Shown: positions 20,491 through 21,146 of the stretch, piece after piece
Layout of the letters: every line of letters begins with the position of its first letter
Position numbering within the stretch: position 1 is the first letter of the stretch
Source: an uncultured bacterium
Lineage (GTDB): Bacteria > Hydrothermota > UBA3073 > NMUJ01
Reading direction: 5' to 3'
DNA: 64,000 nt
Assembly: GCA_965612795.1 (NCBI GenBank)
Contig: CBFDTI010000001.1
Coordinates: forward strand, 5,116-69,115
Program-made: the position numbers and the translations under genes
Notes under the pieces: model-generated
Seen by the model: only the letters and a program-made list of their open reading frames with translations
Database searches by the model: none
Told to the model about the DNA's origin: nothing

Positions 20491-20545
20491 AGCCCAGGAC
20501 CGGACTCGAACCGGCGACCTTCCCGCCAAGGCGGGATGCTCTACC
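20491..20545 (-). pseudogene. tRNA-like 3' remnant with intact T-arm and acceptor 3' strand, anticodon arm replaced by a CCCGCC-TT-GGCGGG hairpin, and 5' end missing
   Basis: RC reads GGTAGAGCATCCCGCCTTGGCGGGAAGGTCGCCGGTTCGAGTCCGGTCCTGGGCT; 3' half identical to tRNA-Thr at 20802-20874 except the anticodon region, which cannot form a 5-bp stem/7-nt loop. Confidence 0.5.
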
Positions 20546-20792
20546 GTTTTTGATGGCATATTAGCTCCTTGAATGCTCTACCTCCCTTGTAACGTTTCAA
20601 TAAAGTCTCACGACGTCGAGCCTCCCTTAACGTATCGTACTTTTCATAATAAATCAACCTCAACGGGCGCCTTGCTTTCAGTGATTTGGTCTTACCGCTG
20701 TTGTGCTCTTTTATCCGACGGTTCAAGTTCTTGGTAACCCCAATGTAATATCCATTATCCTTGAGGCTTTGCAGTACATATACATAGTACAT
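20541..20792 (-). CDS. GIY-YIG nuclease-superfamily small protein (YhbQ/UPF0213-like), 83 aa
   Basis: MYYVYVLQSLKDNGYYIGVTKNLNRRIKEHNSGK = GIY-YIG motif. First ATG is at 20792. The ORF-track TTG start at 20843 would overlap the tRNA-Thr gene and is rejected. Confidence 0.75.
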   Translation of the reverse strand: MYYVYVLQSLKDNGYYIGVTKNLNRRIKEHNSGKTKSLKARRPLRLIYYEKYDTLREARRRETLLKRYKGGRAFKELICHQKR

Positions 20793-20801
20793 AAAACATA
20801 A

Positions 20802-20874
20802 AGCCCAGGACCGGACTCGAACCGGCGACCTCTTCCTTACCAAGGAAGTGCTCTACCCGCTGAGCTACCTGGGC
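20802..20874 (-). tRNA. tRNA-Thr (anticodon GGT)
   Basis: RC: GCCCAGGTAGCTCAGCGGGTAGAGCACTTCCTTGGTAAGGAAGAGGTCGCCGGTTCGAGTCCGGTCCTGGGCT; acceptor GCCCAGG/CCTGGGC, anticodon stem CTTCC/GGAAG loop TTGGTAA. Confidence 0.9.
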
Positions 20875-20882
20875 ATTTACTA

Positions 20883-20909
20883 AATTTACATCAGCTTGTT
20901 TTATGTCAA
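20883..20909 (-). promoter_or_regulatory. Promoter of tRNA-Thr (TTGACA -N15- TAAATT, 8 nt before tRNA 5' end)
   Basis: Minus-strand TTGACA at 20909..20904, TAAATTTAG at 20888..20880; identical architecture repeated upstream of each tRNA-like unit. Confidence 0.4.
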
Positions 20910-20938
20910 CAATTTAAATCCACAAGTATTTATTTAAT

Positions 20939-21000
20939 GGGACTCGAATCGGCGACCTTCCCGCCAAGGCGGGATGCTCTACCCGCTGAGCTACCTGGGC
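20939..21000 (-). pseudogene. tRNA-like 5' remnant: first 26 nt identical to tRNA-Thr, same aberrant CCCGCC-TT-GGCGGG anticodon-region hairpin, T-arm 3' strand and acceptor 3' strand missing
   Basis: RC reads GCCCAGGTAGCTCAGCGGGTAGAGCATCCCGCCTTGGCGGGAAGGTCGCCGATTCGAGTCCC then diverges (ATTAAATAAA). Confidence 0.5.
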
Positions 21001-21008
21001 ATCTACTA

Positions 21009-21035
21009 AATTTACATCGGTCTATTTCATGTCAA
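21009..21035 (-). promoter_or_regulatory. Promoter copy upstream of tRNA-like remnant (TTGACA -N15- TAAATT)
   Basis: TTGACA 21035..21030, TAAATT 21014..21009, 8 nt from remnant 5' end. Confidence 0.35.
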
Positions 21036-21071
21036 TAATTCACGACTTTCACAGTCTAAAGGACTTTTAAA

Positions 21072-21113
21072 GGGACTCGCACCGGCGCCCTCTTCCCACT
21101 GAGCTACTTGGGT
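21072..21113 (-). pseudogene. Third, more degraded tRNA-like remnant (acceptor + D-arm fused directly to T-arm-like segment, no anticodon arm)
   Basis: RC ACCCAAGTAGCTCAGTGGGAAGAGGGCGCCGGTGCGAGTCCC. Confidence 0.3.
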
Positions 21114-21120
21114 ATAACCA

Positions 21121-21146
21121 AATTTACATCGACCCCTATATGTCGA
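21121..21146 (-). promoter_or_regulatory. Promoter copy (TCGACA -N14- TAAATT) upstream of third tRNA-like remnant
   Basis: TCGACA 21146..21141, TAAATT 21126..21121. Confidence 0.3.

Follow-up and report, generated by a model that had tools for sequence, protein, structure and literature searches.

In a 64,000-nt stretch of DNA from an uncultured bacterium (contig CBFDTI010000001.1; the whole stretch is referred to here as the window), positions 20491-21146 hold an intact transfer RNA (tRNA) gene, a small open reading frame (ORF) for a GIY-YIG protein and three partial copies of the same tRNA gene, which we call units A, B and C. Every feature of the locus lies on the minus strand. Read 5' to 3', a promoter-like motif is followed by unit C, a second such motif (P1), unit B, a third (P2), the intact tRNA-Thr(GGT), the GIY-YIG ORF, unit A and a DUF498 gene (20133-20480). 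The tRNA-Thr(GGT) (20802..20874) is the sole tRNA found by ARAGORN at the locus (20874-20802), scores 71.7 bits with the Rfam tRNA model and has a full cloverleaf with a GGT anticodon and a fold z-score of -3.95 against shuffled sequences. The ORF encodes 83 aa of UPF0213/YhbQ type (20541..20792), and its ATG lies 9 nt past the tRNA 3' end. Spacers of 29 nt and 10 nt separate B from P2 and A from DUF498, respectively.

Unit B (20939..21000), delimited by the repeat families D2, D3 and D4 and by alignment, is a 5' fragment of the tRNA that reproduces positions 1-26 exactly, continues through a hairpin arm, the variable loop, the 5' strand of the T-stem and the T-loop, and ends after GAGTCC. Unit A (20491..20545; repeats D1 and D4, and alignment) is a 3' fragment that runs from tRNA position 18 (GGTAGAGCA) to the 3' end, likewise with a hairpin arm, and its last 31 nt are identical to those of the tRNA. 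The two units have 44 nt in common, hairpin included, of which 43 are identical (repeat family D4), so that the direct repeat of ~34 bp given in a first-pass annotation of this DNA was an underestimate. The core CCCGCCTTGGCGGG occurs in the 64 kb in B and A only, against 0.18 occurrences expected. The hairpin, TCCCGCC-TT-GGCGGGA, occupies 16 nt at the exact place of the 17-nt anticodon arm in both units (20959..20974 in B; 20521..20536 in A, where it was identified by sequence and fold; both entered without a strand), and it too is confined to A and B in the window. This arm forms a 6-7-bp stem with a 2-4-nt loop and lacks the 5-bp stem, the 7-nt loop and a valid anticodon. Unit C (21072..21113; alignment and repeats D1/D3) is an older tRNA copy, consisting of the acceptor 5' strand and the D-stem/loop followed by the variable loop and the T-stem/loop. 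It has lost 21 nt internally (the 3' strand of the D-stem and most of the anticodon arm), its residual arm sequence is of the true-tRNA rather than the hairpin type, and it is cut off after the T-loop at the same point as unit B.

The remnants thus go back to partial duplication of the tRNA-Thr gene and enclose its promoter-like motif, the tRNA itself and the GIY-YIG gene, as the first-pass annotation had held on the grounds that the flanking units share exact tRNA parts, that one lacks a 3' end and the other a 5' end, and that a third, more degraded unit follows. Its statement that only the unit at 20802-20874 folds as a tRNA also stands. Neither ARAGORN nor Rfam, even at E<=10, finds a tRNA in units A, B or C, and Rfam has no match to the hairpin regions and remnants at this locus (E<=10), in 11 related loci (E<=0.01) or in the whole window. 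The z-scores of A and B (-1.3 and -0.8) are no better than those of shuffles, that of C is +0.37, and no unit has both acceptor strands, the 3' strand being absent from B and C and positions 1-17 from A.

The tRNA and units B and C are each preceded by T(T/C)GACA-N15-TAAATTT(A/G)G, which ends 5 nt (TAAATT 8 nt) before position 1. It reads TTGACA-N15-TAAATT in P1, before unit B (21009..21035), and in P2, before the tRNA (20883..20909), and TCGACA-N15-TAAATT before unit C (21121..21146). The conserved motif GATGTAAATTTRGT has three occurrences at 0 mismatches, only in this locus, and P1 with the 5' part of B forms a 66-nt repeat (D2) with P2 and the tRNA that is 89% identical. The same promoter had been ascribed to every unit, which holds for B, C and the tRNA; none lies upstream of unit A. 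Among 13 related assemblies the hexamers are conserved and the spacer between them is variable. A sigma-70 scan that admitted spacings of 16-18 nt did not call these motifs, because their spacer is 15 nt, and the sigma-70 consensus may not be that of the WOR-3 bacteria to which the relatives of the locus belong; their status as promoters is hence one of sequence resemblance only.

The ORF product matches Pfam PF01541 (E=7.6e-17), as expected of the YhbQ-type GIY-YIG gene that had been noted here, and the UPF0213/YhbQ/COG2827 proteins BH0048 (PDB identifier 1zg2) and EF2693 (PDB identifier 1ywl) at E ~1e-8 (2e-8 and 3e-8), with which it shares the length class. The residues Y5, Y16, G18, R26, H30 and E62, invariant in 81 homologs, are all kept. 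Its TAG stop codon (20543-20541) is the TAG of GGTAGAGCA in unit A and thus lies inside that unit, again as first described. Among relatives the ratio of nonsynonymous to synonymous divergence (dN/dS) is ~0.05 at synonymous divergences (dS) of up to 0.4, indicating strong purifying selection, and because of this and of the retention of all family-invariant residues we take the ORF to be a working gene. No Shine-Dalgarno-like sequence precedes its ATG, and the tRNA ends just 9 nt before this start, which suggests near-leaderless translation following tRNA 3' processing. We note a second ATG 5 nt upstream of the start (20797-20799, minus strand), in another frame and also without a Shine-Dalgarno-like sequence, that opens a 14-codon ORF overlapping the start of the gene. 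With 83 aa the product comprises the catalytic domain only and has no C-terminal DNA-binding domain of the I-TevI/Seg type; it scores 19.9 bits with TIGR01453 against a cutoff of 56, and the matches to homing endonucleases in PHROG span residues 1-39 only. A classical two-domain homing endonuclease is ruled out on these three counts. Phage and viral collections gave just weak or partial matches, so the family is not phage-borne in the collections searched, and tblastn found no second copy of the ORF in the window.

Relatives of the locus with and without the ORF, for which a search had been proposed, were found through the DUF498 neighbour, through 95%-identical ORF products and through one DNA-pattern scan, giving 13 independent assemblies including the window. 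Exact look-ups of the 83-aa protein and of the neighbouring uridine kinase had no match, and a member of the ORF-product cluster is annotated as 'candidate division WOR-3 bacterium 4484_18'. Writing T for the tRNA, the order of the window, C-B-T-ORF-A, is shared by L083 and L091, while L088, L089, L090 and L094 have B-T-ORF-A. The remaining assemblies each have an order of their own, namely B-B-T-ORF-A (L081), C-B-B-T-ORF-A-A (L084), B-T-A-ORF-A (L085), B-B-T-A-ORF-A-A (L092), T-ORF-A-A (L093) and C-T-A (L082), the last without the ORF and without B. Unit B thus numbers from 0 to 2 and unit A from 1 to 3, A may stand on either side of the ORF, and the ORF is missing from one of the 13 (L082), which has a single A. 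The locus is structurally unstable. Since 13 independent assemblies hold the same unit types, the repeats are not an assembly artefact, and the worry that they might be a collapsed tRNA repeat falls away. The instability extends upstream in L085, which has a 244-aa ORF without a Pfam match (144-878) before the array, where the window and other assemblies have the uridine kinase gene, and therefore the upstream boundary of the locus has also been rearranged in the population.

At the junction without the ORF, a spacer is followed by (AT)GGTAGAGCA, and at the junction with it the spacer is followed by ATG...AAAAC and GGTAGAGCA, so that the boundaries are those of the ORF itself; the junction of tRNA, spacer and unit A reads ATGGTAGAGCA. 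In L082 the T-A spacer is similar to the spacers between A units in L084, L092 and L093, and for this reason L082 is best read as a deletion that would have arisen by a crossover of the tRNA with an A unit, within the identical 31 nt at their 3' ends.

These data bear on the earlier suggestion of an attachment (att)-type target duplication, in which an integrase would have inserted an island into the tRNA gene, duplicating its 3' part as attL and attR, and most of the island would since have been lost. A direct repeat that holds a tRNA 3' end and flanks foreign DNA is the classical signature of such islands, and in both cases the duplicated segment keeps the tRNA intact. However, a domain search found no site-specific recombinase, of the tyrosine or the serine type, between the repeats or in the neighbouring genes, and the sole ORF between the repeats is that of the 83-codon GIY-YIG gene. 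The repeat begins in the D-loop, breakpoints of this kind lie in D-, anticodon- and T-loops, the orphan copy has its anticodon arm replaced by a hairpin, and 5' fragments such as B and C, here present together with a 3' copy, are not predicted. The ORF-less relative still has unit A, unit numbers vary between genomes, and the same design recurs in dozens of loci without integrases. We therefore regard integrase-type insertion as very unlikely.

The tRNA-Thr differs on average at 0.023 of positions between pairs of the 13 assemblies, with four of its 73 sites variable (three in the D-loop and one at position 4 of the acceptor stem). Unit A has diverged by 0.04-0.07 (p-distance 0.067) and unit B by a mean of 0.084, about four times the tRNA value, the two together being 2-4 times as variable as the tRNA, and synonymous divergence averages 0.17 in DUF498 and 0.26 in the ORF. 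Units A and B are thus under weaker constraint than the tRNA, yet they have changed less than synonymous sites. For their tRNA-derived parts this can be put down to gene conversion from the tRNA, which does not account for the hairpin.

Promoter-like motifs before B and C, and a conserved hairpin length-matched to the anticodon arm that it replaces, could be expected if A, B and possibly C were genes for a tRNA-like non-coding RNA, such as a decoy or regulator, with their own promoters and a hairpin for an anticodon, a function that the first-pass annotation had entertained. A locus in a metagenome-assembled genome (MAG) of Sphingobacteriales (L006, 2358-3889) has full-length units of this kind with both acceptor strands. 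There, a normal tRNA-Pro(TGG) is followed by four GIY-YIG ORFs alternating with full-length pseudo-tRNA-Pro units, in which CCCCGCC-ATC-GGCGGGG replaces the D-arm and a second hairpin stands in the T-loop; ARAGORN calls two of these units tRNA-Pro with the anticodon at position 38. At the window locus, on the other hand, no complete acceptor stem, no Rfam or ARAGORN match and no significant fold is found, unit A has no motif of its own, the number of units varies from 0 to 3 between relatives, and B is far more variable than the tRNA. A tRNA-like RNA of separate function seems to us quite improbable.

The genealogy of the ORF departs from that of its flank. Between L091 and L093 the dS of the ORF is 0.00 against 0.15 for DUF498, and between L085 and L092 it is 0.47 against 0.07; because the ORF thus disagrees with the adjacent gene, these values indicate lateral exchange of the ORF between backgrounds. 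L082 and the window differ in the absence or presence of the ORF at a DUF498 dS of 0.027.

A scan of a genome collection with the window protein gave 80 loci, the best matches to this one query, from about a dozen phyla (CPR (Candidate Phyla Radiation)/Patescibacteria, Omnitrophota, Planctomycetota, Bacteroidota, Marinimicrobia, Lentisphaeria and others). In 45 of them the GIY-YIG ORF directly adjoins a tRNA of the same orientation. The ORF stop falls within -38..+35 nt of tRNA position 1 in 35 loci, within +13 nt in 33 of these; frequently it resembles that of the window in being a TAG that belongs to the tRNA, either to its positions 8-10 or to its D-loop. All tRNAs at <=200 nt from an ORF (55/55) are co-oriented with it, and tRNA density, 1.09 per kb near the ORFs, is 0.10 per kb in the other parts of these loci. 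Partial copies of the partner tRNA, often 100% identical to it, flank the ORF in ~30 loci, and the partners include tRNAs for Ser, Tyr, Asp, Pro, Arg and Ala. Two arrangements are seen. In the first, a 5' fragment, hairpins, the ORF and the intact tRNA follow one another, with a repeat of about -10 to +36 (L005, L012, L017, L043 and L051). In the second, the intact tRNA, the ORF and a 3' fragment do so, as in the window, in its nearest relatives L001 and L024, and in L031, which has the window design with a tRNA-Arg (the fragment starting from position 18, the stop at a TAG in the D-arm, and a palindrome inserted). The nearest protein neighbour shares the amino acid of the tRNA in 32 of 40 cases, and protein clades go with the tRNA partner and the arrangement, not with taxonomy, at a resolution that is limited by the 75 aligned residues. 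The GIY-YIG gene is no incidental insert but the common denominator of the architecture across bacteria.

Other loci show how the parts may be rearranged. The 66%-identical homolog L087 (1405-1900, on an 807-kb contig) has the parts of the window, but its ORF precedes the tRNA. It begins with a 5' pseudo-tRNA that has the hairpin as its anticodon arm. A further hairpin borders directly on the ATG of the ORF, the end of the ORF overlaps a tRNA-Ala(TGC), and after this come two pieces of 3' pseudo-tRNA that bear TCCCGCC hairpins. The two closest homologs outside WOR-3, L001 (Lentisphaeria) and L024 (Marinimicrobia), are each preceded immediately by a Ser(GCT)-Ser(TGA) pair of tRNAs; the window itself has tRNA-Ser(TGA) and tRNA-Ser(GCT) genes one base apart (3435-3612, plus strand), where there is no GIY-YIG ORF. 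In the Bdellovibrionales MAGs L058 and L059 (3370-3771), a GIY-YIG homolog lies ~120 nt upstream of a co-oriented transfer-messenger RNA gene, which stands in place of a tRNA.

The hairpin belongs to a family that comprises TCCCGCC-N2-5-GGCGGGA, variants whose changes are paired, and a class with CCTGCC...GGCAGG. In the other loci its members start exactly at the end of the tRNA homology or replace a tRNA arm. The anticodon arm is replaced at matched length in L003 and L087, as in A and B; in L020, L050 and L066 the hairpin stands in the D-loop, between GGATA and GAGC, in L001 and L073 in the T-loop, and in L031 it separates the variable loop from the T-stem. At <=150 nt from the ORFs the strict motif shows a 16-fold enrichment, and most of the more distant copies are also inside tRNA fragments. 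An automatic search for hairpins with an intact T-arm behind them yielded L087 and a genuine tRNA-Ser and nothing else, so that exact replacement of an arm characterises the closer relatives of the window (its own clade, L087 and L003); outside this group the hairpin is found at a breakpoint or in a loop. An Uhrbacteria MAG (L010, 2868-3340) has, on the opposite strand, a tRNA-Thr(GGT) with two partial copies that each end in CCCGCC-TTT-GGCGGG and a second hairpin, and no GIY-YIG ORF within <=2 kb of them. Hairpin-bearing tRNA fragments can therefore exist away from the ORF, as a relic or through independent spread.

Because the stem keeps its sequence while the loop may have any length from 2 to 5 nt, the hairpin would fit a site recognised as a folded single strand, of DNA or RNA, better than one recognised as a double-stranded dyad. 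A small conserved stem-loop that travels with a single small nuclease gene, has a conserved and covarying stem and a variable loop, and would be recognised as a folded single strand recalls the REP (repetitive extragenic palindromic)/RAYT and IS200/IS605 systems; those, however, use HUH (Y1) transposases and hairpins dispersed over the genome, unlike the hairpin discussed here, which is at one locus in 64 kb and nearly always within tRNA fragments. Two other origins or roles of the hairpin were considered and rejected. It is not an intrinsic terminator, as no T-run follows it on either strand and a terminator scan was negative, and no convincing alignment derives it from the anticodon arm of tRNA-Thr by one or two indels or lets it be read as another anticodon.

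It might still be supposed that a tRNA gene with its promoter underwent ordinary tandem duplication and decay, that the GIY-YIG gene came in later and independently, and that the hairpin goes back to one mutated ancestral copy. The units at the window are indeed periodic at 126 nt and carry promoter-like motifs, unequal recombination changes the copy number of any tandem repeat, and the hairpin variants among the WOR-3 relatives (C6>G, which leaves a mismatch, loop T>C, and T1>C) are all uncompensated, with no covariation found within WOR-3. But the ORF, the abutting co-oriented tRNA, the partial copy and the CCYGCC hairpin recur together with many tRNAs and in many phyla, the hairpin keeps the exact arm length both in the window and in L087, and the motif is enriched beside the ORFs. 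Because of this recurrence across phyla we consider tandem duplication and decay unlikely, and the initial impression that the hairpin is not a product of random decay is strengthened by a family of such hairpins beside homologous ORFs, in or next to partial tRNA copies.

We regard it as fairly probable that the locus is a functional tRNA-Thr(GGT) gene occupied by a minimal GIY-YIG nuclease cassette, of which the remnants are recombination products and the hairpin a conserved part acting in cis. The anatomy, the polymorphism in the population, the selection on the ORF and the recurrence across phyla were observed directly; nuclease activity of the protein, its target, its causal link to the duplications and a function for the hairpin we infer. 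In its many phyla the package looks like a selfish cassette that dwells in tRNA genes, not like the outcome of random decay. In such a cassette the ORF would sit tight against a tRNA gene, co-oriented with it and bracketed by a partial duplicate of that tRNA, and one intact copy would therefore survive, while the dead copy would carry a conserved GC-rich stem-loop, either within one of the tRNA loops or in the place of an entire arm. At the window the tRNA would be the intact copy. The ORF would run into A, an orphaned 3' copy, and B and C would be orphaned 5' copies that stop at the T-loop and have a promoter-like motif apiece. The nuclease, or perhaps merely the surrounding repeats, would provoke breaks in the DNA of the tRNA gene; these would be repaired by recombination between short identical tRNA segments, and the repair would spread or retain the ORF in a homing-like transfer and lead to the gain or loss of partial units. 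In intron homing with one-sided homology, illegitimate repair of double-strand breaks can duplicate the target around a homing-endonuclease gene, and a duplication of this kind would fit the repeats of 44-95 nt. The hairpin may be a structured recognition or cleavage site of the nuclease, a barrier to recombination between the flanking repeats, or an end-cap, in which case the stem-loop would cap the transcript of the ORF on the side not defined by tRNA processing. Since tRNA genes supply conserved sequence blocks in every genome, they would explain both the choice of target and the spread across phyla.

Several observations weigh against a nuclease cassette of this kind. The 83-aa protein is a putative nuclease, for DNA in general and for tRNA genes or hairpins in particular, and it has no DNA-binding domain of the type that gives classical GIY-YIG homing endonucleases their specificity. 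The parent branch, Slx1/UPF0213, has been described as mostly vertical in inheritance (PMC1564403). The number of copies in a tandem repeat changes by ordinary unequal recombination without a nuclease, and the dependence of amplification on the nuclease is here a correlation in which the lone ORF-less assembly, L082, has one A and no B. The genomes of L085 and L092 each have, besides the ORF, an A junction without it, and this junction is therefore not an efficient target. The 80 loci are not a random sample of the family, and 35 of them have no ARAGORN-detectable tRNA adjoining the ORF. Double changes are seen across loci at 5 of the 7 stem pairs, but the hairpins were preselected with a hairpin finder, and because they were thus chosen for pairing this covariation, though real, carries an ascertainment bias and gives weak support.

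The constant position of the ORF across lineages with dS of 0.2-0.4, together with its strong constraint, also fits a host-beneficial gene, and for these two reasons a non-mobile, host-beneficial ORF is a serious rival, which we hold possible though not probable. The GIY-YIG gene would then be domesticated in a tRNA operon, for example as a structure-specific nuclease that works on RNA or at tRNA genes under heavy transcription, the pseudo-tRNAs with their hairpins would be cis signals on the transcript, serving in the processing or end-protection of its mRNA, and the duplications would be old and maintained. Under this explanation the dN/dS of ~0.05 follows, as do a divergence of A and B of 0.04-0.08 against 0.17-0.26 at synonymous sites of neighbouring genes, a hairpin that, in both arrangements, has the ORF between itself and the functional tRNA, and the stem covarying between loci. 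A role of Slx1-type bacterial proteins that touches on RNA metabolism has been proposed from a fusion with TrmH (PMC1564403). It is harder to reconcile with a domesticated gene that the ORF is present in one and absent from the other of two near-identical genomes (the window and L082), that its genealogy is discordant with the flank and that the protein clades track the tRNA partner over unrelated phyla. Fresh, 100%-identical partial duplicates and multi-copy arrays, moreover, point to ongoing insertion or amplification, and beyond the hairpin A and B have no significant fold.

It is already known that GIY-YIG homing endonucleases reside beside tRNA genes in phages, and the closest studied analogue of the proposed cassette appears to be SegB of phages T4/T6, a free-standing, two-domain, I-TevI-type phage enzyme of roughly 220 aa. 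SegB is encoded in the phage tRNA cluster, cleaves tRNA genes at the T-psi-C motif and homes with co-conversion of the flanks; it is associated with many tRNA isotypes and has been shown experimentally to drive recombination-dependent, unstable tandem amplification of units of tRNA and segB (PMC2330249; PMC13096335). In both systems a GIY-YIG gene lies among tRNA genes of many isotypes, and the window units break at the T-loop (B and C) and the D-loop (A), the former recalling the cleavage site of SegB; the locus likewise has a variable number of tandem units, with the ORF present or absent at a fixed site. The 83-aa protein, on the other hand, belongs to the UPF0213/Slx1 branch, is chromosomal and has almost no phage or viral relatives, and neither a conserved hairpin nor a hairpin-substituted pseudo-tRNA has been described for SegB. 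Homing-endonuclease genes of group I introns in tRNA anticodon loops are also similar in that a selfish nuclease gene occupies a tRNA loop and tRNA function is kept, but the window locus has no intron (Rfam negative), and the function would be kept by partial duplication and not by splicing.

The UPF0213/YhbQ proteins, for which mainly vertical inheritance has been described, are annotated as of unknown function, and in the literature searched we found no report that links them to tRNA genes, partial tRNA duplications or the hairpin. Likewise, in the searchable literature, outside which most subscription journals lie, we found no description of a chromosomal association of UPF0213 ORFs with tRNAs across phyla, of partial tRNA duplications around such ORFs, or of a conserved hairpin that replaces or interrupts tRNA arms. 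More tentatively, the UPF0213-type GIY-YIG genes, the CCYGCC...GGCRGG stem-loop and the partial tRNA copies could together constitute a new and widespread class of mobile cassettes that colonises tRNA genes across phyla, in which a minimal structure-specific nuclease would recognise or create a hairpin at tRNA-gene loops, the target would be regenerated by partial duplication, and the pseudo-tRNAs would be footprints or working ends. Were this so, a large family of unknown function, the bacterial Slx1-like minimal GIY-YIG domain, would gain a biological role, the SegB-type link between GIY-YIG genes and tRNAs would extend from phages to the chromosomes of many phyla including CPR/Patescibacteria, and tRNA genes would be targeted in a new way, with the hairpin as a candidate for how a nuclease of ~80 aa without a DNA-binding domain finds its site. 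Odd annotations such as pseudo-tRNAs, tRNA fragments, 'tRNAs' with hairpin arms and ORF stops inside tRNAs would also be explained, and tRNA-like fragments beside small GIY-YIG ORFs would be better annotated as parts of one unit.

The genes neighbouring the locus are those for DUF498, a glycosyltransferase, the uridine kinase and a prolyl oligopeptidase. Elsewhere in the window, a full-length bacterial RNase P RNA of class A lies on the plus strand (42191-42531, 255 bits).

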